Below, piece by piece: positions 4,087 to 48,212 of a stretch of DNA of 64,000 nucleotides; the stretch's first letter is position 1, and every line of letters begins with the position of its first letter. A program made the translations under genes and the position numbers. The notes under the pieces were generated by a model. It saw nothing but the letters and a program-made list of their open reading frames with translations. It was not told where the DNA came from and searched no databases. Source of the stretch: a virus (taxonomy: Duplodnaviria; Caudoviricetes); IMG/VR virus record IMGVR_UViG_3300028591_000076, positions 128,001 through 192,000 of that record. The stretch is one strand, 5' to 3'.

Positions 4087-5754
4087 ATGATAGTAAATAG
4101 TATAGAGCAATATAACTTATTAAAAGCAGATACAGTTTTTACTTTTGTATGTAATTCTTGTAATAATACTTTTGAGAAGCGTAAACGACGAGGAAAAAGG
4201 GGCGAAACTTTTAATTTTCTCTGCCAGAATTGTGGTAGAAAAATGACCAATATAAAAAGGTATGGCGCTGAAAACGTATTTGCGTCTGATAGTATCAAGT
4301 CGAAAATAAAAGAAACATGCTTAGAAAAATATGGCGTTGAAAATCCTATGTTTTCTGAACAAATAAAAGATAGGTCTAAGGAAACTTGTTTAAAAAAATA
4401 TAATGTTGCTTACAGTTTCCAGTCTGATAATAATAAAGAAAAGTCTAAAGAAACCCTTTTAGAAAAATATGGAGTTGACCATCCATCAAAGAATAAAGAA
4501 ATTAAAAAGAAAATGGTAGAGTCTTGGTTAAAAACAAAAGAAGAAACACAAGAAAAAATAGAAAAAACTTGTTTAGAAAAATATGGTGTATCTAGGCCTA
4601 TGCAAAATTATAATGTACAATTAAAAGCCAAGAAAAAATATACATATGATAATCTTCAATTTGACTCAAGCTGGGAACTAGCTTTATATATTTATTGTAT
4701 TGATAATAATATAGATTTTGAATATCATCCAAATATTAGTTTTAAATATAAATATAATGATATTGAATATTCTTATTTTCCGGATTTCAAGATAGAAAAT
4801 GATTTTATAGAAATAAAGGGCTTACAGTTTTTTGAAAATAAAGATGTTAATGGAAAAATGATAAATCCATTTGATAGAAGCCTAGATGATAAATTTGAAG
4901 CAAAACATCAGTGTATGATAGAGCATAATGTTAAAATTATTACAGACTGCTCTAAGTATATAAATTATGTAAATAAAAAATATACTTCTGATTTTTTAGG
5001 ACTATTTGAAAATGGCCTCGATTTTCCGTATTTAAATCAAGATTTAAGCGATAAATCCGATATGGGCCTTATTCATCATTTTCATAAATCTATATATATT
5101 GCGTCTAGAAATGGCAAAATTTCCCCGTTAGACGCATGGCAAGATAAAAATATAATTAAAAAAATTGCGCTTAATAGATTAAAATATGTAGGTCATTGTA
5201 GACCATCAGATATTCTACAGGGATTTAATGTAACTAGAATAGCAAATAAAGTATCTGTATTTAACCCGAAACTAGCAGAAAACCTTATTAAGAAATATAT
5301 ACCTAATGCAGATATTATTATTGACCCATTTTCAGGATTTAGCGGAAGAATGTTGGGGTCATATAATTGTGATATACACTATATTGGATGGGATATAAAT
5401 GAGGACCATGTTAGAGAGTCTAATGAAATCGTAGACTATAAATTGATAGGTGATATGTGTGATATAAAAATACAAGATTTAATTACATTTGGGGGTAAGG
5501 ACTGGTCCGTACTTAAAGACGTATGTTTATTTACATGTCCGCCATATGGTGGAAAAGAACATTGGAATAAGAATAATGATGAAATAGAAAAGTCTTGTGA
5601 TGAATGGATAGACTTATGTTTAGAAAAGCATAGGGGATGTATAAAATATTTATTTGTAGTTGATGAAACTGAAAAGTATAAAGATAAAATTGTAGAAACA
5701 ATAACGAATAAAAGTCACTTTGGCTCAAATAATGAATATGTTATAGTTATCTAA
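4087..5754 (+). CDS. Homing-endonuclease-like protein: KETCLEKYGV repeats + PD-(D/E)XK nuclease + C-terminal amino-DNA methyltransferase
   Basis: CxxC pairs; ~24-aa repeats; FDSSWE...YFPDF...IEIKG; DPFSGFSG (motif I) and FTCPPY (motif IV). Confidence 0.75.
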   Translation: MIVNSIEQYNLLKADTVFTFVCNSCNNTFEKRKRRGKRGETFNFLCQNCGRKMTNIKRYGAENVFASDSIKSKIKETCLEKYGVENPMFSEQIKDRSKETCLKKYNVAYSFQSDNNKEKSKETLLEKYGVDHPSKNKEIKKKMVESWLKTKEETQEKIEKTCLEKYGVSRPMQNYNVQLKAKKKYTYDNLQFDSSWELALYIYCIDNNIDFEYHPNISFKYKYNDIEYSYFPDFKIENDFIEIKGLQFFENKDVNGKMINPFDRSLDDKFEAKHQCMIEHNVKIITDCSKYINYVNKKYTSDFLGLFENGLDFPYLNQDLSDKSDMGLIHHFHKSIYIASRNGKISPLDAWQDKNIIKKIALNRLKYVGHCRPSDILQGFNVTRIANKVSVFNPKLAENLIKKYIPNADIIIDPFSGFSGRMLGSYNCDIHYIGWDINEDHVRESNEIVDYKLIGDMCDIKIQDLITFGGKDWSVLKDVCLFTCPPYGGKEHWNKNNDEIEKSCDEWIDLCLEKHRGCIKYLFVVDETEKYKDKIVETITNKSHFGSNNEYVIVI

Positions 5755-6501: not shown

Positions 6502-6567
6502 AAATTATATATTAGTAATTTTATATATTTTTTTGTTAATCTACATATTATTCATAAGGAGTTAACT

Positions 6568-8490
6568 ATGGCAAAATTTAGTACACTTACACATAATGGC
6601 CCAATATTTCCACCAGAATATGAAGTAAAGGGATTTAAGTTAGCAAATGAAGAGCTTTCGCCACTTGCGGAAGAAATGATGTGGCATTATGCTGCTAAGC
6701 GTGATACTGATTATGTAAAAATTGAAAGATTTAATAAAAACTTTTATAGTTGTCTTAAGCCGGAGCTTACAGCAAATCAGCAGCTTCTCGAATTTCCTAA
6801 GGACTATAAAAAGCTTATTGATGATATGTTTAATAAAAATCAGCAGATTAAGGAACAAAAAGCAAATTCAGCAGTAAAAAAAGTAACAAAGAAAGAATGG
6901 AAACTCGCAGAAGAAGATGCATCTCTTAAAAAGAGACTCGAAGCTCGCCAGAAAAAATATGATGAAGCAGACGCAGAAAAAACTGCAATGAAAGAAAAGT
7001 ATGGGTTTGCTTTTAAGGATGGCAAAAAAGAGCCTCTTGGCAGTTTTATGATTGAGCCTCCGGGAATTATTATGACTCGTGGCGATTCGTCTATTCTTGG
7101 TATGTGGAAATATCGTACTGTACCAGAAGATGTAATTATTAACTTTATTCCACTTCCAGAAAAAGAATGGGATGCTCTTCCAAAATCTTATCAGGATGTT
7201 GTTCTTGGTAAAGCTGAAATGAATACACTTTTACCTGAAGATCAGGAAAAACTTAAGGAGATGAAAATTCCATTTGCTCCAAGAGCTCCGGAAGGTCATA
7301 ATTGGAAAAAAGTAGTTTCTGATAATAATTCTTGTCAGACCGTAATGTATTTTGTTCAGGTTGGACGTCCAGAATTTGGTATCAGCCCGCGCTATAAAAG
7401 AATTATTTTCGCTGCTAAGTCTGATACTAAAAAAGAAAAAGATATGCTTAAATTTGAAAAAGCAAGAAAGCTTGTTCAGATGTGGCCAGATATGGAAAAG
7501 CATATTATGAAAGGTATGGTTTCAACTGATGCAAAACGTCAAGAAGCTGCAACTATCGCGTCTCTTATTAAAACGACTGGTATTCGTGTAGGCAATGAAA
7601 AAGATGAATCAGCCGGATATGCAGAAACAGTTGGTGCATCTACTCTTGAAGTAGGTAATATTGAACTTATTGCTGATTACAAAGTGAAGCTTGACTTTAT
7701 GGGTAAGGACTCAGTTCACTATGAAAATACTGTTCAGCTTGACCAGCTTACTTATAATGCGCTTAAAAAAATTATTGGAAATCGTTCAAAAGACGAGCTG
7801 GTATTTAAGAATGCTTCATCAAACGATGTTGCGGCATTCTTGAAAGAGTTTATGCCAGAATGTTCACCTAAACTTTTCCGTTCAGCTTATGGATGTAAAC
7901 TTATTTCAGAAGAACTCCATAAGGCAGAAAAAGATGGAAAACTTACGAAGGCTATGCCAACTTCAAAGAAAATTGCAGTTTATGATAATGCTAATCTTGA
8001 AGTTGCTAAAAAATTAAATCATCAGCGTGCGCTTCCTAAGAACTTTGATGCTCAAATGGAAAAGCTTGATAAGCAAATTGAAGATGCTATTAAGAAAGAA
8101 GCAGAAGTAAAAGCTAAAGCTGAAGCAGAACTTAAGAAAGTCTTAGAGCAGGCTAAACTTGCTAAGAAAGAATGGGAAGGTGAAAAGCTTACAGCAGCGC
8201 TTGAAAGGATTAAAGAGCGTAAAGATAAAATTACCGCTAAAGTAGAAAAGTCGGAAGAAAAGATTGAAAAGCTTAAAGATAAGCGCGAAATGAAAGATAA
8301 AGCAAAAAACTATTCTCTCACCACATCCCGTACTGCTTATTCTACACCAGCTCTTGCGGTAGCTTTCTGTAAAAAGTTTGATATTGATATTTCAAATATC
8401 TATTCTAAGTCGCTTCAGGAAAAATTCAATTGGGCAATGGATACTCCAGAAAGTTATTATGATAATTTCCCTAAAGAAGCTAAAAAATAA
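6568..8490 (+). CDS. DNA topoisomerase IB, long eukaryotic/thaumarchaeal type
   Basis: LTHNGPIFPPEY, IEPPG, KFEKAR, IRVGNEKD..AETVG, DFMGKDS, KLFRS, ANLEVA..LNHQR, coiled-coil linker, TSRTAY; catalytic R-K-R-H-Y set present; SD AAGGAG. Confidence 0.9.
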   Translation: MAKFSTLTHNGPIFPPEYEVKGFKLANEELSPLAEEMMWHYAAKRDTDYVKIERFNKNFYSCLKPELTANQQLLEFPKDYKKLIDDMFNKNQQIKEQKANSAVKKVTKKEWKLAEEDASLKKRLEARQKKYDEADAEKTAMKEKYGFAFKDGKKEPLGSFMIEPPGIIMTRGDSSILGMWKYRTVPEDVIINFIPLPEKEWDALPKSYQDVVLGKAEMNTLLPEDQEKLKEMKIPFAPRAPEGHNWKKVVSDNNSCQTVMYFVQVGRPEFGISPRYKRIIFAAKSDTKKEKDMLKFEKARKLVQMWPDMEKHIMKGMVSTDAKRQEAATIASLIKTTGIRVGNEKDESAGYAETVGASTLEVGNIELIADYKVKLDFMGKDSVHYENTVQLDQLTYNALKKIIGNRSKDELVFKNASSNDVAAFLKEFMPECSPKLFRSAYGCKLISEELHKAEKDGKLTKAMPTSKKIAVYDNANLEVAKKLNHQRALPKNFDAQMEKLDKQIEDAIKKEAEVKAKAEAELKKVLEQAKLAKKEWEGEKLTAALERIKERKDKITAKVEKSEEKIEKLKDKREMKDKAKNYSLTTSRTAYSTPALAVAFCKKFDIDISNIYSKSLQEKFNWAMDTPESYYDNFPKEAKK

Positions 8491-8569
8491 AAATCAGGGC
8501 TCATTTTGAGCCCTATAAATAATGAAAAAGCTTCATACTAGAGATTTTGGATATAATAGGAATTAAATT

Positions 8570-9590: not shown

Positions 9591-10370
9591 ATGGCAGTTC
9601 ATATAAAATCTAGAGAAGATATAAATGACGCAATTCGTTATATTGTAAAAGAAAAAGGTGGCGGAGACTTAGAATATAAAGGAAGAGTTGTAACATTTAC
9701 ATTAAATGGTTTTGACTTATTTATTTCTAATTCGCCATATAGTTTTAAGATTAGGTCAGTTGATTATAAAGAAAGTTTACAAGACGTTTATTATGCAGTA
9801 GAACATCAGCTATGCGTAAAAGAACAGTATGAAAAAGTTCTTACATCACATGATGAGTATGGTAATAAGCTTATTTATTATTATGATAAAACTCATAATA
9901 AAGTAGTTATGATTAAAGCAGTCCTTATTAAGGAAGGCGATAAAGTAGTAGGCTATAATTATAAATTTTTTAGAGAAGAAAAAAATATTCCTAGGTATAA
10001 AGAAATTTATGATAGATATGAATATTATAATAAAGATTATGGTATAGTAGACGATAATTATGTGCTCCAGGAATGGGATAAGGAAACAATTAAAGATACC
10101 GATATCGATCCAGAAGACTATAGACGCTATATTATAAACGAGTTCAAAGGTAAAAAGATTTCACCGAATAATACGCCTAATCTAGGAACTTATCATTATA
10201 AGTTCTATTTTAAATGTGATAATTGTGGAGTTGATACTTGGGAATGGCATGTACATAATTCAGGTGCTCTTATAGACTATTTTCCTCCATTTTTATGTAA
10301 AGAATGTAAAGAAAAACAAAAAAATGGTATATTAGGTCAGCTTAGAAATCAGCCAGGAAGATTTAATTGA
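9591..10370 (+). CDS. Hypothetical protein with C-terminal zinc ribbon
   Basis: CDNCG...CKEC; SD AGGAG. Confidence 0.55.
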   Translation: MAVHIKSREDINDAIRYIVKEKGGGDLEYKGRVVTFTLNGFDLFISNSPYSFKIRSVDYKESLQDVYYAVEHQLCVKEQYEKVLTSHDEYGNKLIYYYDKTHNKVVMIKAVLIKEGDKVVGYNYKFFREEKNIPRYKEIYDRYEYYNKDYGIVDDNYVLQEWDKETIKDTDIDPEDYRRYIINEFKGKKISPNNTPNLGTYHYKFYFKCDNCGVDTWEWHVHNSGALIDYFPPFLCKECKEKQKNGILGQLRNQPGRFN

Positions 10371-10897
10371 AAAAATTAACTTTTTCAGCGCCAGTAACAA
10401 TATTTTTAATTATAATTTCATTTATAATTCTTGTTACTGGTAAGTCTGCTTTATGCGCAACACATAATAGAATTGACCAAAATTTAATTTTACATATTTT
10501 TGGTCATTCTAATTTTAATCATTGGTTTGGTAATATTACACTATTAGCTATAATAGGCCAGTCGGTAGAAGATAAATATGGCAGTTGGACTACATTAATT
10601 TTAGTAATTTTAGATGCTATAATTGTGGGATTAGCTTATTGTTTTTTACAGCCTGTAAGCTGTTATGGTTTATCATCTGTAGTATATATGTTTGTTGTAT
10701 TGAATACATTTCCCTCTAAAAAGGATAATAGTATATCAATACTTACTATACTAATAATGATTATTTTTATTTGCCCAGAAATTATTGGCCTTATAAGGAA
10801 TAATGATAATATTGGACATTTGGCTCATCTTATTGCGGGATTAAATGGGCTAATTTTTGGTATTATATATAGCGCATTAAAATTAAGAAAAGAATAA
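10367..10897 (+). CDS. Rhomboid-family intramembrane serine protease
   Basis: HIFGH...HWFGN, E.KYG, GLSS (GxS) and HLAHL.G motifs within hydrophobic helices. Confidence 0.8.
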   Translation: MKKLTFSAPVTIFLIIISFIILVTGKSALCATHNRIDQNLILHIFGHSNFNHWFGNITLLAIIGQSVEDKYGSWTTLILVILDAIIVGLAYCFLQPVSCYGLSSVVYMFVVLNTFPSKKDNSISILTILIMIIFICPEIIGLIRNNDNIGHLAHLIAGLNGLIFGIIYSALKLRKE

Positions 10898-13836: not shown

Positions 13837-15717
13837 TTATGCATCTTTTACTTCATACTCAACGTCATCTGATGTTCCACTATTTGGCGCAGTATTAGTA
13901 CTTTGATTAGCCTGCTGACTTTCATACATTTTTTGACCAATAATATATGAAGCCTGCTTAGCATCTTCCAGAGCTTTTTTCAAGTCACTAATATTATTTT
14001 TATCTTTCTCTTCTTTCAATTTAGAAAGCGCAGCTTCTACTTTAGATTTTTCATCCGAAGATAATTTATCGCCATAATCTTTTAATGACTTTTCGGTAGA
14101 GTTTATAAGTGAATCAGCCTCATTTTTTGTATCTGCCATTTCCCTTATTTTTTTATCTTCTTCCGCATGCATCTCAGCATCCTTCTGCATTTTTTCAATT
14201 TCTTCCTTTGAAAGGCTAGAAGAAGCTGTAATTGTAATTTTCTGGTCCTTACCTGTTCCTTTATCCTTTGCTGAAACGCTAAGAATACCATTACTATCCA
14301 ATTCGAAGGATACTTCAATTTGTGGCAGTCCTCTAGGAGCTGGTGGAATACCATCAAGATTAAAATTACCAAGTGTCTTATTATCAGCAGCCATAGGTCT
14401 TTCGCCCTGTAATACATGAATAGTTACAGCTGTCTGATTATCTGCATATGTAGAGAATACTTGACTTTTCTTTGTAGGGATTGTAGTATTCTTATCAATA
14501 ATTTTTGTAAATACACCACCCGCAGTTTCAATACCGAGTGAGAGAGGTGTTACATCAAGAAGAACTAGGTCTTGTTTTACGTCACCACTAAGTACACCAC
14601 CCTGAATTGCAGCTCCAATAGCAACAGCTTCATCAGGATTTACTGATTTATTTCCTTCTTTACCAAATACTTCCTTTACAAGAGCCTGAATAGCAGGAAC
14701 ACGCGTTGTACCACCAACAAGGAGAATATCATCAATATCTGAAGTTGATAATCCAGCATCTTTCAAAGCTTGAAGCATAGGAGCACGATGACGTTCTACT
14801 AGCGGAGCAATAATTTGCTCGAATTTTGCTCTGGAAATTTCCATCTGCAAATGCTTTGGACCTGTTGCATCCGCGGTAATAAAAGGTAGGTTAATAGATG
14901 TAGTAGTTGAGCTAGAGAGTGCAATTTTAGCATTTTCTGCTGCTTCCTTAATACGCTGAAGAGCCATAGGATCATTCTTCAAATCTACACCATTTGTTTT
15001 CTTAAAGTCATCACAAATGTAGTCTACAAGCGCATTATCAAAGTCGGTACCACCAAGCTTTGCATCGCCCGAAGTAGCCAAAACTTCAAAAACACCATCA
15101 GAAACATCAAGAATTGAAACATCAAAAGTTCCACTTCCGGCGTCGACAACAGCTAGCTTCTTATTAATATCCTTTTTATCAAAACCAAATGCTAATGCTG
15201 CAGCAGTTGGCTCAGCTACAAGACGTTCTACTTCCAAACCTGCAATTTTACCAGCATCCTTTGTTGCTTGTCTTTGCTTATCATTAAAATATGCTGGAAC
15301 AGTAATAACAGCTTTTGTAACAATTTCGCCCAAATAGTCTTCTGCTGTTTTCTTCATTTTCATCAAAATTTGAGCAGAAATTTCTTCTGGGGATAAATCT
15401 TTTCCATCAATGTTTATCCTAGCTGCTCCATTAGCGCCTTCAGTAACCTTATATGGAACAATATTTATCCAGTCTTTCATTTCTGAATAATTATTTCCCA
15501 TAAAACGTTTAATAGCATAAATAGTATTTTTTGGATTTGTAATTGCCACATTTTTTGCTGACTTACCAACAATTATTTGTCCATCTTTATATGAAACAAA
15601 AGAAGGAGTTGTTCTATCGCCCGCATCATTAACAATAACAGTTGGCGTTCCATTTTCAATTATTGATACACAACTATTACCTGTGCCTAAATCGACACCC
15701 AAAATCTTATTAGTCAT
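13837..15717 (-). CDS. dnaK: Molecular chaperone DnaK (Hsp70)
   Basis: [78 protein letters not shown]. Confidence 0.97.
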
Positions 15718-15719
15718 TA

Positions 15720-16817
15720 TTATTTCCTCTTAAATTTTTCTTTCCAATTTTTTCCAAATTTAGATTCCATATAAGAAAAACAGTCTCTTAAATCAGCACT
15801 TTTTAAGATTATGACATTATTATCTCTTATGCATTGCGTTTTAGCTAATGTTTTTTCAGTAATAGAAAACGTATTTCTATCTAAAATAATGCCATTTTCA
15901 TTTAATAATGCGTCATTTTTTATTTCATAAAGAACATTATCCATAATAAAGTCTGGATAATACATATGTTCTTTACCGAGACTATCCACATATGGTATAC
16001 TATAGGGCTCTCTAATAATATTATGGCCTAAGCTTAAATGATAGATATAAAATGCTAATTCCCAGCTAGAATCAAATAATATATCATTATAAATATATGA
16101 AGAATGCGTACCTATAAAAGCTAATTTACCATATTTTTGTATTTGTGTATCCATAGACTTTTTAAGTACATTAGGGTCACATAATGCGCTAGGCCCTCCA
16201 TATCTTTCAATATTTGTAGCTATTTGTTTTTTTCTAATATCATTATTTTGAGCTGCAAAATCTACGCCATATCTTTCATTCATTGTTTGAATACGCTTTG
16301 CTAATATTCTTGGGTCCTCTTGAATATTTCGGTATCCATATAATTTTTCACATGTATCCCGACCTTTTTCTAAAAGTTCTCTAGATGCAAAACCTGTTCC
16401 GCCATATTTCTCAATATTAGTTTTTTTAGTTTTATTTTTTATTTCTTTAATTTTTTGAGGATTATCAAATCCTTTGCCATAAGTATCTTCTAATGAGGCT
16501 TTTACTTTATCAGCTAAAGTTTTTGAAGCAAATCCAATACCGCCATAAAGTTCAGTATTAGTTTTAATTCTTTGCTCTTTTATTTTAAGTTTTTCCTCTT
16601 CTGTTTTAGACTGCCATGCCATCGTTCTAGCGCAATCCCTACATAAAAAAATACTTCTTGGTCCCATCCTTTTAAGTTGGTCTTTGCGCCTTTTAAAAGG
16701 TTTTTTACAAATACTACAATTGGTCTCAAAGTATGTACTACAAGTAATATTATTTAAAATTTGTAATTTATCATTATCTGATAACTTTGTGTCTATTTTA
16801 ATAATCTTCTGTTCCAT
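15720..16817 (-). CDS. Free-standing homing-endonuclease-like protein (repeats + PD-(D/E)XK, no methyltransferase)
   Basis: TNxExYG repeats; [10 protein letters not shown]...YYPDF...YEIK. Confidence 0.7.
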
Positions 16818-16933: not shown

Positions 16934-17464
16934 TTATTCTGAGTCTTTTTCAGTTACTTCTACATCTTCTGCGTCTTTCGCATTTGCAATCTGCTTTGGT
17001 TCTTCTTTCTTTCCAAAGAGAACGCGATTCTTAGCAAGTTTTTCATTGCATGGAACCATAATGCTGAAAATACCATTTTTCAAATCAACCGTTGCTTTAT
17101 CAGCATTAAAGTAAGTTGGGTCAATATAGAAAGAGATATCTGATGCTTCGCGAGAATATTTAATTCCGCCCTGAAGATACTTTCTCTTTTCTGTTGGCTG
17201 TTCTTTCTTTAATGTAACAGTAATATAGTTGTCTTTATAATCGCACTGAATTTCATCTTCAGTATAACCGGCAACTGCGCATTCAATATGAAGCGCGCCA
17301 TCTTCTGTTCTATAAATATCTGATTTTGGATAGTTAGATGAACAGATAGAATTTGTTACTTTAGTGGGAATATCACTAAAACCAATTGAGAAAAATGGAT
17401 CATTGAAAAATGAATCAAGAATAGAAGCTGCTGTTACAGCTGCGGGATAGTTACGATTACTCAT
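16934..17464 (-). CDS. Small heat-shock protein (Hsp20/alpha-crystallin family)
   Basis: YP..DIY, AVAGY..DEI, GIK, A.V.LKNGI..I.VP. Confidence 0.85.
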   Translation of the reverse strand: MSNRNYPAAVTAASILDSFFNDPFFSIGFSDIPTKVTNSICSSNYPKSDIYRTEDGALHIECAVAGYTEDEIQCDYKDNYITVTLKKEQPTEKRKYLQGGIKYSREASDISFYIDPTYFNADKATVDLKNGIFSIMVPCNEKLAKNRVLFGKKEEPKQIANAKDAEDVEVTEKDSE

Positions 17465-29226: not shown

Positions 29227-30456
29227 ATGGTAGATTTAAAACAAGCTAATAGAGACGTTGCTAATTTTTGTTTCGCAATGAAAAAAGAAATGCGTACATA
29301 TAAAGTATTTTGTGCTGGTGGATATAATTCACAAAATATAAATGAGCAACTATATAATTATATATTAAATAAATCAGAGGAACTTATAAAGCAGATAAGA
29401 ATATCTGTTATAAAATTTTGTAGAGCTAATCCATCTAAAGCTGACCAAACATTTAAGAAATTTGTAGATGAAGGCTTTAATAGTCAAAATATTACTGAAA
29501 AAGTATTTAATGCAACTTTACAGAAGTTTTATGCAATATCTAGTAATACAAGCTCACCTACTAATCCGTCCACTAGTAAACCAGTGGATACATCAAATAA
29601 TGTAGTTCAAACAAAATCTTCATTAAAAATTATTGATGGCTTTATGGTTGATACTAAATCTGGATTTATTCCAACTATAAATTATGTATCAAAAAGATAT
29701 AAAGAATTTAATAAAAAATATTTTGAAGACCAATTACCTAGTGTACCTATAAAAATTGCGGATACTAAAGGCTCAGCTGGCATGGTAAGATTTGCTTATA
29801 GAGGTGGCGTACGTACAATAGTAGATTTTAGAATATCACAAAAATACGGATATCCAGAAGAAGTAGTTTGTAATACTATTTTGCATGAGATGATACATGT
29901 ATACCAACATGCTATTCTACATGAGTCTCACAGAAATAGTGACGCGCATGGTATATCATTTATTAGAGAAATGAGAAGAATTAACGCATTTGGATGGAAA
30001 ATATCTACACATGTCACTGAAGAAGAACATAGTACGGCTATTCTTACAGATTTACAAAAATCAAAATTACATAATTTCAAATTTTATGCATTCTATAAAT
30101 CAAACAAGCTATGTATGGGAAAAATTAGAATTTCTAATTCTTCTAGACTAAAATCACCAGACCTAGCTTGGTTTGCGCCTAAAAAACCAAAATCTGCAGT
30201 ATTTGTTAGTATGCCAGAAACAAAAGGTCTATCATATAGCTATAGTGGTCATCCACTTACAATAGATGAAGTTAAAAAACTTTTAGCGGATGAAGAAATA
30301 TCTCTTATTTCTGCGCCTGATAAAATTAAAGAAAAATTGGGCTTAATAAATAAGGTAAGGGAATCTATTGATAAAGAAGATGAAAATGTTCTATATGTAG
30401 ACGGTGATTATAGAATAGTTATTGAAAATGGTGAAAGAATAGAGGAACTATCATAA
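29227..30456 (+). CDS. SprT-like zinc metalloprotease
   Basis: Y..FN..YF...LP, ILHEMIH, HG..F..EM.RIN. Confidence 0.8.
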   Translation: MVDLKQANRDVANFCFAMKKEMRTYKVFCAGGYNSQNINEQLYNYILNKSEELIKQIRISVIKFCRANPSKADQTFKKFVDEGFNSQNITEKVFNATLQKFYAISSNTSSPTNPSTSKPVDTSNNVVQTKSSLKIIDGFMVDTKSGFIPTINYVSKRYKEFNKKYFEDQLPSVPIKIADTKGSAGMVRFAYRGGVRTIVDFRISQKYGYPEEVVCNTILHEMIHVYQHAILHESHRNSDAHGISFIREMRRINAFGWKISTHVTEEEHSTAILTDLQKSKLHNFKFYAFYKSNKLCMGKIRISNSSRLKSPDLAWFAPKKPKSAVFVSMPETKGLSYSYSGHPLTIDEVKKLLADEEISLISAPDKIKEKLGLINKVRESIDKEDENVLYVDGDYRIVIENGERIEELS

Positions 30457-38240: not shown

Positions 38241-39695
38241 ATGAAATGTAAGTTTTGTGGTAGAGATTCCGATTCAGAAATTTGTCATAATTGTAAAATA
38301 CTAATGTCTAAAAAACATTTTTCTGAAAATGATATGACATTGTATATGAATAAGCCCTCAATTATAAAAATAAATAATATTGACGAGCTACAATCAAATA
38401 TACTTGTGAACTCTGATAAAATAACTTTTAACTGTATAAATTGTAAAAAAGAATATACGGGTACATTTAAGCATATAAAGCAGAAAAAAGAATTATTATG
38501 TGCACAGTGTACTCTTGAAAAAAATAATTTACAAAAGTATGGAAAGAAAAATATATTTGAGACGGATGAATGTAAAAATAAAATAAAAGAGACCAATAAC
38601 TCGAAATATGGGCATGATTATTATTTACAGACGGATGAGTCTAGAAAAAAACTACAAGATAAACAGTTTAATGATGCAAAAAATAACTTAAGCCTCAAAT
38701 TACAAAACTTTAGTGATTTTACTATACTAGATAATCTTATTAGACCAAAAGGTAAAGACGGCCATTATTATTTCGCAAAGGTTAGTTGCACTTGCAAAAA
38801 GTGCGGGTCTACTTATATAACAAATATAAGACGCGCACAAAGATGTAATAAGTGTTATCCAGAAGACTGGCTTAATGGTACATCAAAACTAGAAAAATCT
38901 ATAGTAGAATATATAAGGTCTTTTTATAATGGACAAATTATAGAAAATGATAGGTCCATAATAAGTCCAAAGGAATTAGATATATACTTACCAGAAAAAA
39001 AGTTAGCAATTGAAATAGATGGTGATAAATGGCATGGATGCAATGATATTACGTTATTCAAGGACTTATTAAAAAAGGCTGGTGAAAAGCAAACTCTATG
39101 TAATAATCTAGGCATTAGACTTATTACTATAAAAGAATGTGATTATTTAGATAGACCCGAAGTTTTTAAGCGTTTTTTAATAGATGCTATTGGTGATAGA
39201 ACTAGAATATTTGCTAGACAATGTAATATTAGAGAAATATCTAAAGAAGACGCTTATAATTTTTGTGAGTACTATCATGTAAATGGATATAGAAATGGAT
39301 CTATTAAATATGGACTTTTCTATAAAAATGACCTAGTATGCGTCGCAGTTTTTGGAAGGCATCCTAAATATGAATGGGAATGTATACGTCTTTGTTATAA
39401 AACTGGAATATCAATTATCGGCGGATGGGAAAAAATTCAAAAGCACTTTGGTAAGAAGTTCTTACATTATGTAAATCTACAATATTTTATGGGTACAAAT
39501 GTTACGGGTATAGGATTTAGATTTTTAAGAAATGGTATTATTCTATCGAGAAATACATTACAAAAAAATACTCAGATTAAGAAATACTGTAATAATTATG
39601 ATGAAAATCTAAGTGATATTGAAAATTGTATAAATAATGGATTTACTGTTATTTATGACTGTGGAAATGATAGAAGAATTTACAACACTAATTAG
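38241..39695 (+). CDS. Hef-like homing endonuclease (Vsr/DUF559-like) with C-terminal GNAT-like domain
   Basis: KYG repeats and CxxC; S.LE, ELDIYLPEKKLAIEIDG..WH, GIRLITI.E; RIFARQC.IREI...F...H.NG...YGL...LV.V..F. Confidence 0.7.
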   Translation: MKCKFCGRDSDSEICHNCKILMSKKHFSENDMTLYMNKPSIIKINNIDELQSNILVNSDKITFNCINCKKEYTGTFKHIKQKKELLCAQCTLEKNNLQKYGKKNIFETDECKNKIKETNNSKYGHDYYLQTDESRKKLQDKQFNDAKNNLSLKLQNFSDFTILDNLIRPKGKDGHYYFAKVSCTCKKCGSTYITNIRRAQRCNKCYPEDWLNGTSKLEKSIVEYIRSFYNGQIIENDRSIISPKELDIYLPEKKLAIEIDGDKWHGCNDITLFKDLLKKAGEKQTLCNNLGIRLITIKECDYLDRPEVFKRFLIDAIGDRTRIFARQCNIREISKEDAYNFCEYYHVNGYRNGSIKYGLFYKNDLVCVAVFGRHPKYEWECIRLCYKTGISIIGGWEKIQKHFGKKFLHYVNLQYFMGTNVTGIGFRFLRNGIILSRNTLQKNTQIKKYCNNYDENLSDIENCINNGFTVIYDCGNDRRIYNTN

Positions 39696-42621: not shown

Positions 42622-44460
42622 CTAGATATAGGATATTAAAACAACATATTCATTATTTGAGCCAAAATGACTTTTATTTGTTAAAGTCTCTACAATTTTA
42701 TCTTTATATTTTTCAGTTTCATCAACTACGAATAGGTATCTTTTACATTTATATTTTTCAATACAAATATCAATCCATTCATCACAAGATTTCTCAATTT
42801 CATTCTTGTCTTTGGACCAATGCTCTTTTCCTCCATATGGAGGACAAGTAAATAAACAAGTATTATTGCCAAAGTCATATCCTTTTGACCTTAAGATATC
42901 TTGTATAACTACAAAATTCGAGCCTTGCATATTTATATATCTTAAAATCTCATTTGACTCTCTTACATGGTCTTCATTTATATCTTGGCCAAAATAATCC
43001 TTACCACATCTAATTGTGCCGAGCATTCTTCCACTAAAGCCAGAAAATGGATCAAATATTGAGTCACAGTCATTTAAGTATTTTTTAATAAGGTCCTCTG
43101 CTAATTTTGGCTTAAATACTGTAACTTTATTTGCTATTCTAGTTACATTAAAACCTTGCAAAATATCGGAAGGCCTACAATGACCCTTATATTTTAATCT
43201 ATTAAGCGCAACCTTCTTAATTATATTTTTATCTTCCCAAGCTTCTCTAGGGGAAATCTTACCTTCTCTAGTAGCATCATAGATAGACTTATGAAAATGA
43301 TGTATTAAGCCCATATCTGTTGTATCTGATAAATCTGAGTTAAGATAAGGAAATGGTAAGTCAACTAAAAATAAGTCAATATAGTCTTTTGTATATTTAT
43401 TATTGACATACTGTAATATTGGCTTTATATCATTTTCTGTAAAAAATACAACATTATTATCAAGCGCACATTGATGTTTTGCTTCAAACTTATCATCTAG
43501 GCTTCTATCAAATGGATTTATCATTTTTCCATTAATATCACCATTTTCAAAAAATTGTGTACCTTTTATTTCAATAAGAGACCCGTTATATTTAAAGTCG
43601 GGATAATACATATATTCAGTATCATTATAATAATATACAAAAGGGTCTTGTACTCTAGATATATCTAAATTATTATCTTTCGCATAAATCCATAAGGCTA
43701 ACTCCCAACTTGAATCAAAGTACTCGCCATCATAAAGATACTTCTTATATCTCTTATACTGAAAATCTACAGTTTGTGAATAAGATGGAACGCCATATTT
43801 TTCTAAACAGGTTTGCCTTGCTTTTTCACGAATAATATTAGACTGCATAACATTAGATACACCATACCTATGTGAAATACTTTCTTTACTTCTATCCTTA
43901 AATTCTTGAGTATGCATATAACTCTCTTCATTATATCGCTGTTTACAAGTATCTATTGCTTTAAGTCTATTATTATAATATGGGTCATTATATAATTCTA
44001 ATTTAGTCTTTTTAGATTTTTCTATATTTTCATTATAACAATTTTCTACACTACCAAAATTACGTATTTTAGTTTCTTTTGCTGCTTCCTTAAATGAATC
44101 AGACTTAACATATGCATCTACACCATATTTTTCTAAACAAGTATTTCTAGCTTTATCCGAATTTACATAATGTGGATTATTATATTTTTCTATTTTTGTT
44201 TTAGCACTTTTTTCTTTTATACTATTCAACTTAAAAACATTAGTAACACCATACCTTTCTTTACATGTTTCTTTTACTTTTGTAGACATAATTTGTAGAG
44301 TACAATGTCTACAATATGGAGACCTCTTATATGCTTTTATAGATTTAATTGTTTCAACTGAACAATTAGAACAATTAAATATAACTTTTTGTAAGGGCCG
44401 CCAATCATCAATATTAGAAGGTAATAATATTGGCTCACTTGAAAAATTTAATTTTTTCAT
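42622..44460 (-). CDS. Paralogue of 4087..5754: repeats + PD-(D/E)XK nuclease + amino-DNA methyltransferase
   Basis: TCxExYGV repeats; FDSSWE, YYPDF, IEIKG; DPFSGFSG; FTCPPY. Confidence 0.75.
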   Translation of the reverse strand: MKKLNFSSEPILLPSNIDDWRPLQKVIFNCSNCSVETIKSIKAYKRSPYCRHCTLQIMSTKVKETCKERYGVTNVFKLNSIKEKSAKTKIEKYNNPHYVNSDKARNTCLEKYGVDAYVKSDSFKEAAKETKIRNFGSVENCYNENIEKSKKTKLELYNDPYYNNRLKAIDTCKQRYNEESYMHTQEFKDRSKESISHRYGVSNVMQSNIIREKARQTCLEKYGVPSYSQTVDFQYKRYKKYLYDGEYFDSSWELALWIYAKDNNLDISRVQDPFVYYYNDTEYMYYPDFKYNGSLIEIKGTQFFENGDINGKMINPFDRSLDDKFEAKHQCALDNNVVFFTENDIKPILQYVNNKYTKDYIDLFLVDLPFPYLNSDLSDTTDMGLIHHFHKSIYDATREGKISPREAWEDKNIIKKVALNRLKYKGHCRPSDILQGFNVTRIANKVTVFKPKLAEDLIKKYLNDCDSIFDPFSGFSGRMLGTIRCGKDYFGQDINEDHVRESNEILRYINMQGSNFVVIQDILRSKGYDFGNNTCLFTCPPYGGKEHWSKDKNEIEKSCDEWIDICIEKYKCKRYLFVVDETEKYKDKIVETLTNKSHFGSNNEYVVLISYI

Positions 44461-44528: not shown

Positions 44529-45647
44529 TTAAGCTTTCGCTTTAATCCAATTTTTCAAATTATTAACATGCACGTAGCGGTCTTTCTTTTCCATTCGCTT
44601 ACCCTGATTAAAATGGGAAACTTTTGTACTAAGATATCCTGTAATTCTTGCATAATCATTTATATATTTTTCATGATTTGCACCGCACTGTGGACAGTCT
44701 TCATCATCTTTTATATAGCCAGAATAACCACATTGCGTACAGTCTGAAAACAGTACATTTAAGGCAAAATATGGCACGTCTTTTTCCATTGCATAATCTA
44801 CAATTTGTTCTAAGGCTTCAAGATTATTTACTGCATTATCGCCAATTTCTACATATGTAATACAGCCTGCAATAGAATATCCGGTAAGTTGGCTTTCTAT
44901 ATCAATCTTTTCAAATGGTGAAATTTCTTTCCAAACTGGAACATGAATACTATTTGTAAAATATCCTCTAGGAACAAGCTTACCATTCTGGTCTCTATAT
45001 GCATTTACATTTTCAATAAGTCCATATTTCTTTGTAAATTTATTAAATGATGTAAGGCATAAAGACTCGGCGGGAGTATAGTAAACACCAAAGTTAAGCT
45101 TATAATTTTCCTTATACTCTTTACACTTTTTCTGGAAAAGCTCTTCTATTCGTTTTGCTAATGCCATTCCTTTAGGGTCTGTATGGTCATGACCAATAAG
45201 AATTTGAAGAGTCTCTGCTAGACCAATTTGGCCAATAGCTAAAGTTCCATGTTTTAATACGCCACGAATACCTTCTTTTTCAAACTCGTCATTATACGAG
45301 AAGAAAGTACCATTTGTATACATAAAATCGGCAGAAGCTGGGTCCTGTGAACAAATCCAATCAAATCTCTCGAGAAGCTCATCTTTACAGTCACCGATTG
45401 CTTTTTCAAGAATATCCATGAAATAGTCTACTACATAATCATTAGCATCATCTTTCTCAGCTTTTCTTTTTGCTTCCATAGCTAATGTTGGAAGAATAAC
45501 TGTTGCTGGCGCAATATTACCTCTTCCATCTTTCATATGTGATGATGTTATTGGCGCTTCTGGTATATCTTCCCCATTTATTAATGCTTTTATCGATCTC
45601 TCAAAGTCTGCTTTCCAATTTATATCCCATCCACTATAAGTTCTACA
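44529..45647 (-). CDS. nrdD: Anaerobic RNR C-terminal subunit, exon 2 (begins CRTYSG)
   Basis: GRGNIAP.T..LP, GTLAIG..GLAE, TPAES, YFTNS.H, CxxC..CxxC, RITGYL glycyl-radical loop. Confidence 0.92.
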   Translation of the reverse strand, partial: CRTYSGWDINWKADFERSIKALINGEDIPEAPITSSHMKDGRGNIAPATVILPTLAMEAKRKAEKDDANDYVVDYFMDILEKAIGDCKDELLERFDWICSQDPASADFMYTNGTFFSYNDEFEKEGIRGVLKHGTLAIGQIGLAETLQILIGHDHTDPKGMALAKRIEELFQKKCKEYKENYKLNFGVYYTPAESLCLTSFNKFTKKYGLIENVNAYRDQNGKLVPRGYFTNSIHVPVWKEISPFEKIDIESQLTGYSIAGCITYVEIGDNAVNNLEALEQIVDYAMEKDVPYFALNVLFSDCTQCGYSGYIKDDEDCPQCGANHEKYINDYARITGYLSTKVSHFNQGKRMEKKDRYVHVNNLKNWIKAKA

Positions 45648-46708
45648 CGTTTTTACCAAATGTTACCATCTGAACTGACTATATCTTCCGTTTAATGAAA
45701 AAACGGTCTTCTGTTTCGAGACGCGCTAATCCCGTCCCTACTTGGCTACACTCATCACCAATAGTCGATACACATTTAGAAACTAAAATGAAACAAGCCA
45801 ACCATTTATTATAGCGCCATTTAATAATGCGCCTGACTGCCTACAGCTATATCCTAAAAAATTCATTGCTAGATGTTTTGATGGAAATTCTTTTAATTCA
45901 TCACCTTTTTTAAGAATAACTCTTGTACCTCTTCGTCTTGATAAAGAATTATTTTCAAAAGAGTCTATGTATTCATTATTCTCAAGAGCAAACAGCCACT
46001 CATTTCTCCACAAACTTAAACACTTATTATTTACACGGCTCATAATTACATTTTTATTTTTTATATTAAAAAAGTTAAGACACTCCGTAATAGTATCAAA
46101 ATAATGTTCTTCATTTGTTAAGACAGACTTACATTTTATCTGCTTACTAGCGCCGTTATTTCTGCCAGAATTAGATTTCGATATTTTCGATTTAATATCT
46201 CCCATCTCTTTTGGACTTTTATTTAAGTATGTATTTCCACCTTCGCCACCTAAGGCTGAATTATAACCAAAGTTGTTATCAGTTGACTTATAAAAACTTA
46301 TCCAATATCGTTCTTTTTCATTCAAGTCTTGCTGGCTATTTGCTTCATCTATTTTCTCAATTTTAAAAGCGTCTCTACCATATTTTTTAATAGCCCGTTG
46401 AAAATGTATTGTAGGATTTTCCGATCTTTCAGCATCTCTTATATGCCTTTCAAATCGTGACTCCATAGTTCTTATTGTCTGTCCAATATAAACTTTGTTA
46501 TTAACTGTGCAGGTAATCTTGTAAATAATTCCGTTCATTTTGTCTCCTTTAGCACGGTCTCATCCTAGAAGGACCTAACCGTTAGCCATACTAATTTAAT
46601 TAGTTGTAGAACCTTTAATTGTATTATTAAACGTTCTGCAATAACCTTTTGTATGACACCCCTTTAGCATAGGTTAAGAAGATTTTATATGAGCTATAGT
46701 TTACACTT
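45648..46708 (-). mobile_element. Group I intron (IA-like) carrying a GIY-YIG endonuclease
   Basis: 5' exon ends ATGGGT, pairing with intron GCTCAT (U.G at the splice site); CTATA can pair with 3' exon TGTAG (P10); P7 strands ATCGACTA and AAGATATAGTC; terminal G before TGT; splicing restores STMG|CRT in frame. Confidence 0.92.
45783..46538 (-). CDS. Intron-encoded GIY-YIG homing endonuclease
   Basis: GIIYKIT...NNKVYIGQT...RF..H, E..WI, GYN...GG; NUMOD1-like C-terminal repeats; SD AAGGAG. Confidence 0.9.
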   Translation of the reverse strand: MNGIIYKITCTVNNKVYIGQTIRTMESRFERHIRDAERSENPTIHFQRAIKKYGRDAFKIEKIDEANSQQDLNEKERYWISFYKSTDNNFGYNSALGGEGGNTYLNKSPKEMGDIKSKISKSNSGRNNGASKQIKCKSVLTNEEHYFDTITECLNFFNIKNKNVIMSRVNNKCLSLWRNEWLFALENNEYIDSFENNSLSRRRGTRVILKKGDELKEFPSKHLAMNFLGYSCRQSGALLNGAIINGWLVSF

Positions 46709-46781: not shown

Positions 46782-48212
46782 TTATTCAACAATATCAATT
46801 CCTAAAATATCGCTTAATTTAGGATCCTTCTGTATTCTTTCAATAAGTTTCTGTTGTTGTTCTTCTGTTAAAGAATTCAAAAACTTATTTTTATAATCCG
46901 CATCATTCCATCCAGCGTCCTGACTCCAGTCACAGTTAACATAGTTAGGGTACATTCTCATAGATGTACATTTTATAGCATGTTTATAAAGGTCATAATT
47001 TGGTGATCCCTTATCATTTACGCCTTTCATCTTCTGGAAAATCTGACAAGGGAAAATTGATGTTTGTCCATTACCCGTGCCTCTAATAGTTGCGTCAAGA
47101 ATTGCGCGAATAATAATACGGCCTTCTGGAAGCGTACATGTACCGTAGTTAATAGAGCTAAATGGTAACTGATTACCTGAGCGGGACTGAAGAGAATTCA
47201 AATTATGAAGCATACCTTCTGCGCCTTGTTTAGCTTCCTGAATTGTATCAAATACGGCAGATTGTCTTAATTTAGGGTCTAACTTTTTATTATCAAAAGT
47301 AAAGTCTTCTTTTTTCAAGCCCATTCTATCGAGATACTCTTTCTTATGTTCATTTATCCAGTCTTCTAGCTTATTTCTCCATACGCCAGACTCATCCTTA
47401 TAATCTTTAAACATAAGGTCTGGTAAATCTAGTGTTTCAAATTCGTCTGTAGTTTTTAAGTAAGCAATAATATAATGCTTCATAAAAGACTTACGAACAT
47501 AAGGTACTAATGTCCAGTCTATATGAGTAGCTGCAACACCACCAAACTGTTGTAAAGACTGTAACTGAAAATATACTGCAATAAGCTGAAATGCAGTGTT
47601 AACTGATCCTGCTGGTCTAATAATAGTTTGTCTAGTCTTAACACATTTTGATAGAAGCTCGTCCATTGGAACTGAAAGACAATTATGCATACCTAGAATA
47701 TATGAATCTAGGTCATGAATATAAACTCTATTATTAATATGATTTTTGGCAAATCTTGGAGATATATAATAATTTAATGCATGCTCTTTTAAAAAGGCCG
47801 AGTCCATTTCTCCTTTACGGCCACCAAAAGAAAACTCATCAAGATTTGCATTTTGATGTTCTCCACCGTCAGATTTCTTCACTAGAAGCTTTGATTCCAT
47901 AACGCCAACGAGTGGTAATCTCTTAAATCTAGCAGCATCTCTTTCTTGACGGTATGTCATATATTGACGTGCAACTTCAAAACAGTTATTCTTCATAAGG
48001 GCATTTTCTACTGCCTTATGAACATCTACAACATCTACATCCGCATTTTCATCCGTATTTTTCTTTAGAAAAGACAAAGCTGTTGATACAACTTTTTCAA
48101 TCTTTTCATCATCTAGCTTAACTTCAACTTTAGAATTAGCTTTTTTTATAGCTCTAAATATTTTCTGTGGGTCAAAGTCTTGCTTTTTTCCATCTCTTTT
48201 AATGACTCTCAT
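46782..48212 (-). CDS. nrdD: Anaerobic RNR N-terminal subunit
   Basis: ATP cone (VIKRDG...FD..KI), NANLDE.SFGG, YIHDLD, HNC, QFGG, HNLNSLQSRSGNQLPFSSINYG, IFP, RMYPNY. Confidence 0.93.
   Translation of the reverse strand: MRVIKRDGKKQDFDPQKIFRAIKKANSKVEVKLDDEKIEKVVSTALSFLKKNTDENADVDVVDVHKAVENALMKNNCFEVARQYMTYRQERDAARFKRLPLVGVMESKLLVKKSDGGEHQNANLDEFSFGGRKGEMDSAFLKEHALNYYISPRFAKNHINNRVYIHDLDSYILGMHNCLSVPMDELLSKCVKTRQTIIRPAGSVNTAFQLIAVYFQLQSLQQFGGVAATHIDWTLVPYVRKSFMKHYIIAYLKTTDEFETLDLPDLMFKDYKDESGVWRNKLEDWINEHKKEYLDRMGLKKEDFTFDNKKLDPKLRQSAVFDTIQEAKQGAEGMLHNLNSLQSRSGNQLPFSSINYGTCTLPEGRIIIRAILDATIRGTGNGQTSIFPCQIFQKMKGVNDKGSPNYDLYKHAIKCTSMRMYPNYVNCDWSQDAGWNDADYKNKFLNSLTEEQQQKLIERIQKDPKLSDILGIDIVE

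Follow-up and report, generated by a model that had tools for sequence, protein, structure and literature searches.

The topoisomerase gene and its product

A gene encoding a long-form topoisomerase IB (TopIB) was identified in the IMG/VR virus record IMGVR_UViG_3300028591_000076. The stretch analysed here (the window) comprises 64,000 nt and corresponds to record bases 128001-192000; positions are given in window numbering unless the genome or another stretch is named. The gene (P0001) occupies positions 6568..8490 on the plus strand and was recognized from the list of open reading frames (ORFs), its translation and three Top1 Pfam domains. The ORF is uninterrupted, starts with ATG, ends with TAA and encodes a protein of 640 aa, exactly as a first-pass annotation made from the sequence alone had described it. 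A Shine-Dalgarno motif (AAGGAG), read from the sequence, is located at 6556..6561 on the plus strand, 6 nt 5' of the ATG. A 9-bp GC-containing hairpin detected by pattern scan lies at 8495..8515, 5 nt past the stop codon; it is terminator-like on the minus strand only, with no T-run following it on the plus strand.

The cap or DNA-binding domain Topoisom_I_N (PF02919; aa 3-193, 6574..7146), the catalytic core Topoisom_I (PF01028; aa 285-516, 7420..8115) and the C-terminal domain Topo_C_assoc (PF14370; aa 563-630, 8254..8457) are encoded on the plus strand and were matched by Pfam with E-values of 6.5e-29, 2.2e-50 and 1.2e-20, respectively. All three scores are far over the curated cut-offs (e.g., 101 bits versus 25 for Topoisom_I_N). 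In a sequence search of the PDB, the cap aligns with human Top1 from LEHKGPVF to PEDIIIN. A coiled-coil linker of two antiparallel helices (aa 493-535 and 538-578; 8044..8301, plus strand) was predicted by AlphaFold2. A lineage-specific insert of ~36 aa, recognized from the alignment and the model, lies within aa 194-236 (7147..7275, plus strand), directly 5' of the conserved GHxW element, which we take to be lip 1 of human Top1.

The catalytic residues R340 (7585-7587), K380 (7705-7707), R438 (7879-7881) and H485 (8020-8022) were located on the plus strand by alignment, and the catalytic Tyr591 (8338-8340, plus strand), in the motif TSRTAY, by translation and alignment. Two alignments, one of 18 sequences including eukaryotes and one of 67 metagenomic relatives, show these five residues as invariant; T586 and S587 are likewise invariant or nearly so in both. 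The pentad residues sit in motifs aligning with human RAGNEK, GKDS, FRT, NHQR and SKxNY, and the counterparts of R340, K380, R438 and H485, as mapped by the aligned motifs, are human R488, K532, R590 and H632. The Top1 motifs listed in the first-pass annotation are all present in the translation, and its placement of the Tyr codon and of an Ala (A590) directly before the Tyr, replacing the usual Asn, is confirmed.

Among all PDB chains, the best matches by sequence are human Top1 (E 8e-54), aligned in two segments (aa 3-192 and 237-631), and 6z01, a long TopIB from an archaeon (E 6e-51). By contrast, the short TopIB enzymes of variola and vaccinia are matched at only ~1e-5 and over the catalytic core alone (aa ~310-429). 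No PHROG family was assigned to the protein in a scan of PHROGs.

An AlphaFold2 model built on the 67-sequence alignment has a mean predicted local distance difference test (pLDDT) of 95.2 and a predicted template-modelling score (pTM) of 0.86, and the block-mean pLDDT of the linker is ~90 or more. The top Foldseek matches of the model are the human Top1-DNA complexes 1rrj, 1k4t and 1a36, with template-modelling (TM) scores of 0.73-0.76 by query and 0.84-0.85 by target and a root-mean-square deviation of ~3.5-4.6 Å. The model superposes, linker included, on the linker-containing complexes 1k4t and 1rrj. Variola and Deinococcus short enzymes match the catalytic domain only (TM 0.2-0.3), and the tyrosine recombinases XerD, XerA and XerH are weak fold matches. 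The global TM score against the archaeal apo structure is low, which we attribute to the open clamp described for that structure (PMC8748870).

The protein is a long, eukaryote/archaea-type Top1 with a complete domain set and an intact pentad, as the first-pass annotation had proposed. Human Top1 is its best match by sequence and by fold, and it does not group with the short bacterial TopIB by sequence, fold or tree.

Compared with known TopIB systems, the enzyme combines shared architecture with low identity. It has the same three Pfam domains as human TOP1 Topo70 (1A36, 1K4T, 1RRJ), in the same order and with the same pentad, but only ~26% identity. The linker is similar in length to that of eukaryotic Top1, the H-to-Y spacing (a proxy for linker length) being 106 residues in the phage groups and 92-132 in the sampled eukaryotes. 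Unlike eukaryotic Top1, the phage enzyme lacks the long charged N-terminal extension (640 aa versus 700-940 aa), has longer nose-cone helices, the ~36-aa insert before GHxW and Ala for Asn before the Tyr, is encoded by a phage with bacterial translation signals and belongs to a separate clade.

The archaeal long TopIB of Nitrososphaeria and Bathyarchaeia, including Caldiarchaeum CsTOP1 (6Z01/6Z03), shares the cap, core and C-terminal domain, is of similar size and also lacks the eukaryotic N-terminal tail, whereas its identity to the phage enzyme is 25-31%, its clade is separate (support 100/99) and its H-to-Y spacing is shorter (median 82). The long TopIB of Nucleocytoviricota (nucleocytoplasmic large DNA viruses, NCLDV) is likewise virus-encoded and contains all domains in ~500-570 aa, but forms its own clade (100/99), has a median H-to-Y spacing of 71, always carries Asn before the Tyr and lies in loci that are almost without Shine-Dalgarno motifs. 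The short TopIB of vaccinia/variola (2H7F) and Deinococcus radiodurans (2F4Q/3M4A) shares the catalytic fold and chemistry, whereas the short forms, about 310-400 aa long with a small N-terminal domain and found here in frames of 333-480 aa, lack the Topoisom_I_N cap, the linker and Topo_C_assoc.

Several features are specific to the lineage. The nose-cone helices are long in the model (aa 78-101 and 118-145), and the nose-cone is ~25 aa longer than in other groups (spacing of 102 residues versus ~75-77). The ~36-aa insert, modelled as three short helices with a block-mean pLDDT of at least 95, is present in the 69%-identical relative P0012 and missing from the 87%-identical relative P0008. 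Asn precedes the catalytic Tyr in 25 of 25 NCLDV rows and 15 of 16 eukaryote or eukaryote-like long rows, whereas the phage and unlabelled rows have N (20), S (14) or A (7) there.

Carrier phage and native locus

The IMG/VR record is linear, 239,841 bp long, with 30% GC and an estimated completeness of 76% (CheckV). A candidate for the terminase large subunit (TerL) is the 756-aa ORF at genome 43324-45594. In tblastn it gave matches in 114 GenBank phage records (best E-value 3e-16, covering 75% of the ORF), and of the matches listed most fall in annotated terminase large subunit genes; it was recognized by tblastn against phage genomes only, without a PDB, Pfam or PHROG match. A Baseplate_J domain was found in an 826-aa protein (30.9 bits versus a Pfam cut-off of 21.1), and two proteins match tail and tail-fibre PHROGs, down to E 1e-23. 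PHROGs also identified a UvsX-like recombinase (4e-46), a DnaB-like helicase (8.5e-39) and a homologue of the T4 RNA-ligase/tail-fibre attachment protein (2e-42). An SbcC-like protein is encoded as well.

The translation signals of the genome are bacterial. GGAG or GAGG is present at -20..-4 in 92 of the 281 predicted genes (33%) versus 2.4% in the background, with a peak at -13..-10. The same test on the giant-virus loci with long TopIB gave 0 for nearly all of them and at most one ORF in the rest. No NCLDV capsid Pfam match was found in the genome, although the controls of that model were also without any match. The carrier is a tailed bacteriophage and not a giant eukaryotic virus, in agreement with the first-pass annotation.

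The genome also encodes a bacterial flagellin on the minus strand (L002:6413-7261 = genome 198413-199261), with matches to Flagellin_N (5e-39) and Flagellin_C (4e-24), and a FlaA-like filament outer-layer protein on the minus strand (L002:3724-4557 = genome 195724-196557; 34 bits versus a cut-off of 25). A spirochaete host is suggested by these phage-borne genes only.

The topoisomerase locus was found in independently assembled DNA. A 97%-identical protein is encoded on a Logan contig of a different run, where both flanks carry the same neighbours: genes of 131 and 93 aa upstream on the other strand, and genes of 212, 259, 176 (rhomboid), 341, 299 and 272 aa downstream. The 87%-identical P0008 lies on a 553,723-bp ENA contig (L014) in the same gene order, which reaches a 920-aa gene, Hsp70, Hsp20, an XPD-like helicase and an AAA ATPase at 74-93% identity. 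The 69%-identical P0012 lies on a 940,564-bp ENA scaffold (L012), beside RecA and the same 920-aa gene. The locus is native and not an assembly chimera, a possibility that the first-pass annotation had raised, because both junctions recur in two independent assemblies.

Flanking ORFs matching the genome of this phage number 12 of 22 on the 553-kb contig and 13 of 17 on the 940-kb contig. If they are single phage genomes, these contigs are at or beyond the largest phage genomes known. Because relatives lie on contigs of such length, again if these are single phage genomes, the 240-kb record is read as a fragment despite its CheckV completeness of 76%. The true phage genome is probably far larger than 240 kb, and probably exceeds 500 kb.

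The codon style of the gene was held by the first-pass annotation to match the phage core genes, and this claim stands in part. On the main axis of codon usage the gene falls at the same end as UvsX, DnaB, NrdD, the PolA fragment and the neighbouring 920-aa gene, but by distance from the genome mean it ranks 72 of 74 long genes, with a GC content of 0.353. We read this deviation as a bias common to conserved genes and not as a sign of foreign origin.

Relatives and phylogeny

A word-indexed search yielded 276 relative proteins; the listed full-length ones contain all three domains, and the closest form a series from 97% down to 58% identity. A HMMER search of 1.84 billion cluster representatives gave 1908 matches at E<=1e-3, 908 at <=1e-10 and 368 at <=1e-30. 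Identity to any archaeal, eukaryotic or NCLDV sequence is ~25-32%. A scan of IMG/VR with the single sequence found nothing, and an alignment-based scan was required; it located a relative at 97 loci, mostly in giant-virus metagenome-assembled genomes (MAGs); two of the records are 1,259,197 bp and 617,453 bp long. The earlier statement that the long form is typical of eukaryotes and some archaea understates the known range, the long form being common in giant eukaryotic viruses too.

Seven other IMG/VR records (L031, L032, L033, L036, L039, L076 and L099; contigs of 74-178 kb) are rich in Shine-Dalgarno motifs and phage-like. Four further relatives lie in contexts that are all phage-like, with Shine-Dalgarno motifs over background. 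P0043 (L111) is on a 442,135-bp ENA scaffold with ribosomal protein S21, dUTPase and a PD-(D/E)XK nuclease, P0026 on a contig with TnpB, SLT and a giant sheath-like protein, and P0080 (L114) on a 274,771-bp contig with T4 rIIB, PTH2, NADAR and a histidine-kinase-like protein. P0087 (L115) is on a 131-kb contig where the Shine-Dalgarno signal is weakly above background (4 of 21 ORFs).

Cellular genomes and cultured phages were also searched. A motif scan of one genome per prokaryotic species found the long form in Nitrososphaeria, Bathyarchaeia, unnamed archaea and one 2.2-kb contig of a 'Rickettsiales' MAG only. In one bacterial phylum, the catalytic-core model matched 50 of 301 genomes, all with short frames of 333-480 aa, and the cap model matched none of 400 genomes, the misbinned contig aside. 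A tblastn search against 50,697 GenBank phage records gave nothing at E<=1e-5; at E<=5 a marginal core match (E 0.1) was obtained with 'top1E' of Bacteroides phage BS162P1. The TopIB versions of cultured phages are at best very distant from that of the window.

The 'Rickettsiales' contig (L016, CAIKLL010000067.1, 2,263 bp) groups at 100% support with the giant-virus MAG locus L047, and the two proteins have a common QNSKK repeat N-terminus. This contig is probably giant-virus DNA misbinned into the MAG.

Trees were constructed with FastTree (99 rows), with a quick LG+G4 run and with IQ-TREE (LG+G4, 61 rows), the last with 1000 ultrafast bootstraps and the Shimodaira-Hasegawa-like approximate likelihood ratio test (SH-aLRT). 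The FastTree and quick LG+G4 trees agree, and 34 to 37 rows fall with the window in the 99-row tree. In the IQ-TREE tree (ultrafast bootstrap/SH-aLRT), group 1 contains 27 rows (100/99), namely the window, five context-verified phage rows and 21 unlabelled metagenomic rows, and group 2 contains six rows (96/94), four from phage contexts and two unlabelled. The Archaea plus L076 form a clade of eight rows (100/99), and the eukaryotes plus NCLDV a clade of 19 rows (100/100), within which the eukaryotes plus L060 (nine rows, 98/96) and the NCLDV (10 rows, 100/99) are separated. A branch with 78/74 support divides both phage groups from the Archaea, eukaryotes and NCLDV. All contexts checked for members of these two groups have Shine-Dalgarno motifs together with phage-like genes.

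The window gene is a member of a separate, diverse, phage-borne clade and not a lone oddity. The phylogenetic comparison proposed in the first-pass annotation sets this clade (100/99) apart from the archaeal and the eukaryote/NCLDV clades. It can safely be concluded that none of the cellular or giant-virus lineages sampled gave the phage its TopIB by recent capture. The phage lineage is about as deep as the archaeal and eukaryotic ones.

With a short bacterial TopIB outgroup, the root falls in the unresolved centre of the tree, outside group 1 and outside the eukaryote/NCLDV clade; this rooting is weak, with long branches and with three of the 10 outgroup ORFs, maybe wrongly extracted, on a very long branch. 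In the unrooted tree, the two phage groups stand in series beside the cluster of Archaea plus Eukarya/NCLDV. It is a tentative idea, and rather a doubtful one, that huge tailed phages have carried the long-form TopIB from ancient times and that the archaeal and eukaryotic/NCLDV enzymes descend from a phage-like ancestor.

Two records are placed apart from the phage groups. L076 (IMGVR_UViG_3300031999_007842, 156 kb) is Shine-Dalgarno-rich. Its TopIB branches together with Bathyarchaeia within the archaeal clade, has a short H-to-Y spacing (69 residues) and carries Ser at the position preceding the Tyr; the contig could come from an archaeal virus, or be archaeal DNA that was classified wrongly. 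L060 (IMGVR_UViG_3300042481_000772, 83 kb) is without Shine-Dalgarno motifs, and its TopIB groups with the eukaryotes and not with the main NCLDV clade, which suggests a separate acquisition or a eukaryotic contig.

Neighbouring genes, predicted role and significance

Several other genes are encoded in the window. These include a full-length Hsp70/DnaK (13837-15717, minus strand; E 6e-252), an Hsp20-like small heat-shock protein (16934-17464, minus strand) and a rhomboid-family protease (10367-10897, plus strand), all three of which are conserved beside TopIB in the 553-kb relative. An XPD-like helicase and an AAA ATPase are also among the genes near TopIB. Two SprT-like metalloprotease genes (window 29227-30456, plus strand; L002:5469-6335, minus strand) are both at least 21 kb from TopIB, and no SprT-like gene was found within 10 kb of TopIB in any of 15 phage-like loci, which gives no conserved linkage. 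An NCLDV carrier was first suspected from the nearby Hsp70, SprT and XPD-like helicase genes and was ruled out by the Shine-Dalgarno, terminase and baseplate evidence.

Four paralogous DUF7487 proteins are encoded at 4087-5754 (plus strand), 15720-16817 (minus strand), 38241-39695 (plus strand) and 42622-44460 (minus strand), and two of the four show a weak, below-cut-off match to N6/N4 DNA methylases. The anaerobic ribonucleotide reductase NrdD is encoded in two pieces, separated by a gene for a GIY-YIG homing endonuclease (44529-45659, 45783-46538 and 46782-48212, all on the minus strand), which resembles the intron/homing-endonuclease arrangements of T4-like phages. The 240 kb of the record yielded no topoisomerase of the GyrA/ParC or TopA type.

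With a probability of roughly 85%, the gene product is considered to be an active long-form type IB topoisomerase that a very large tailed bacteriophage uses for its own DNA transactions, both activity and role being predicted. From the pentad, the architecture and the closed-clamp model, we infer an ATP-independent swivelase that would relax supercoils of both signs. If it works as human Top1 does, the enzyme would close its cap and catalytic core around duplex DNA, and Tyr591 would attack one strand to form a 3'-phosphotyrosyl link. The downstream duplex could then swivel to release positive or negative supercoils, with no need for ATP or Mg, and the nick would finally be closed again. Such a reaction would provide host-independent removal of torsional stress from a replicating and transcribing genome of at least 240 kb, and probably of more than 500 kb. 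Supercoil relaxation during replication and transcription of the very large phage genome is the most likely role.

Several points weigh against this assignment. The enzymatic activity is a prediction from the sequence and the model. Altered chemistry or an altered response to drugs could underlie the variation among N, S and A before the catalytic Tyr, including A590. Because the record is a fragment, its missing part may hold other topoisomerases. Finally, the major capsid, portal and sheath proteins were not recognized by Pfam or PHROGs. The genome has no match to the Pfam models for T4 gp23, Terminase_6C, phage sheath or T4 portal; large structural-looking ORFs have no Gp23 or Portal_T4 Pfam match and no PHROG, the controls of the capsid and portal models also being without a match. 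The evidence for a phage comes from the terminase, baseplate, tail-fibre and replication genes and from the translation signals, with these structural proteins as the only gap.

The enzyme might instead be used mainly against the host, either to collapse host supercoiling and stop transcription or to replace gyrase and topoisomerase IV that have been inhibited or destroyed. Type IB enzymes relax both signs of supercoil, and TopIB would dissipate the negative supercoiling made by gyrase; the genome also encodes many genes of the host-takeover type, such as Hsp70, Hsp20, the rhomboid protease, flagellin and several methylase-like proteins. Nothing specific points to such use, however. The codon usage of the gene clusters with that of replication genes, and in relatives the genes for RecA, an SNF2 helicase and an XPD-like helicase are among those next to it. 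The broad conservation of the family over many phage-like contigs fits a core role in DNA metabolism at least equally well, and a mainly host-directed use is considered unlikely.

Recent capture from a eukaryote, a giant eukaryotic virus or an ammonia-oxidising archaeon, or contaminating or chimeric DNA, is very improbable. Long TopIB is abundant in giant-virus MAGs and also occurs in Nitrososphaeria and Bathyarchaeia, and both the GC content and the codon usage of the gene are off the genome mean. The gene nevertheless has its own Shine-Dalgarno site, a codon bias like that of the phage's own replication genes, junctions that are kept in two independent assemblies, low identity to all three potential sources and a place in a strongly supported separate clade.

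A further alternative to a general swivelase is a sequence-specific strand transferase that would act in recombination or in resolving concatemers or ends. The TopIB of poxviruses cuts at CCCTT, and the tyrosine recombinases are related to TopIB and have its catalytic fold; the weak Xer fold matches and the lineage-specific cap insertions might also favour this reading. It is nevertheless very unlikely: the whole architecture is kept, including the cap, the clamp and the coiled-coil linker that control rotation in human Top1, and no inverted-repeat or telomere-like feature was linked to the gene.

TopIB-like genes have been reported in the jumbo phages phiRSL1, Lu11, PaBG and Motura (Iyer et al. 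2021, PMC7824862), and PF01028 helps to distinguish one cluster of marine jumbo phages (Weinheimer and Aylward 2022, PMC9123017). Neither paper mentions a eukaryote-type cap or linker; both describe the catalytic domain only. A full-text literature search, covering few subscription journals, found no paper describing long-form TopIB in phages, and an earlier description is possible. The viral versions known before are the short poxvirus-type enzymes and the long enzymes of giant eukaryotic viruses.

Long TopIB is present in Thaumarchaeota and was inferred in the common ancestor of Archaea and Eukarya, and it has been used as a marker linking the two (Brochier-Armanet et al. 2008, PMC2621148). 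The diverse, deep clade on phage-like contigs makes bacterial viruses a third large reservoir of long TopIB, and the origin of eukaryotic Top1 becomes testable with better-rooted trees. Substitutions at the human N722 position are linked to camptothecin resistance. The phage proteins are compact Top1 homologues that vary naturally at this position, before the catalytic Tyr, and could serve mechanistic and structural work. They also hint at how phages with genomes of several hundred kb may handle DNA torsion without ATP-dependent type II enzymes.

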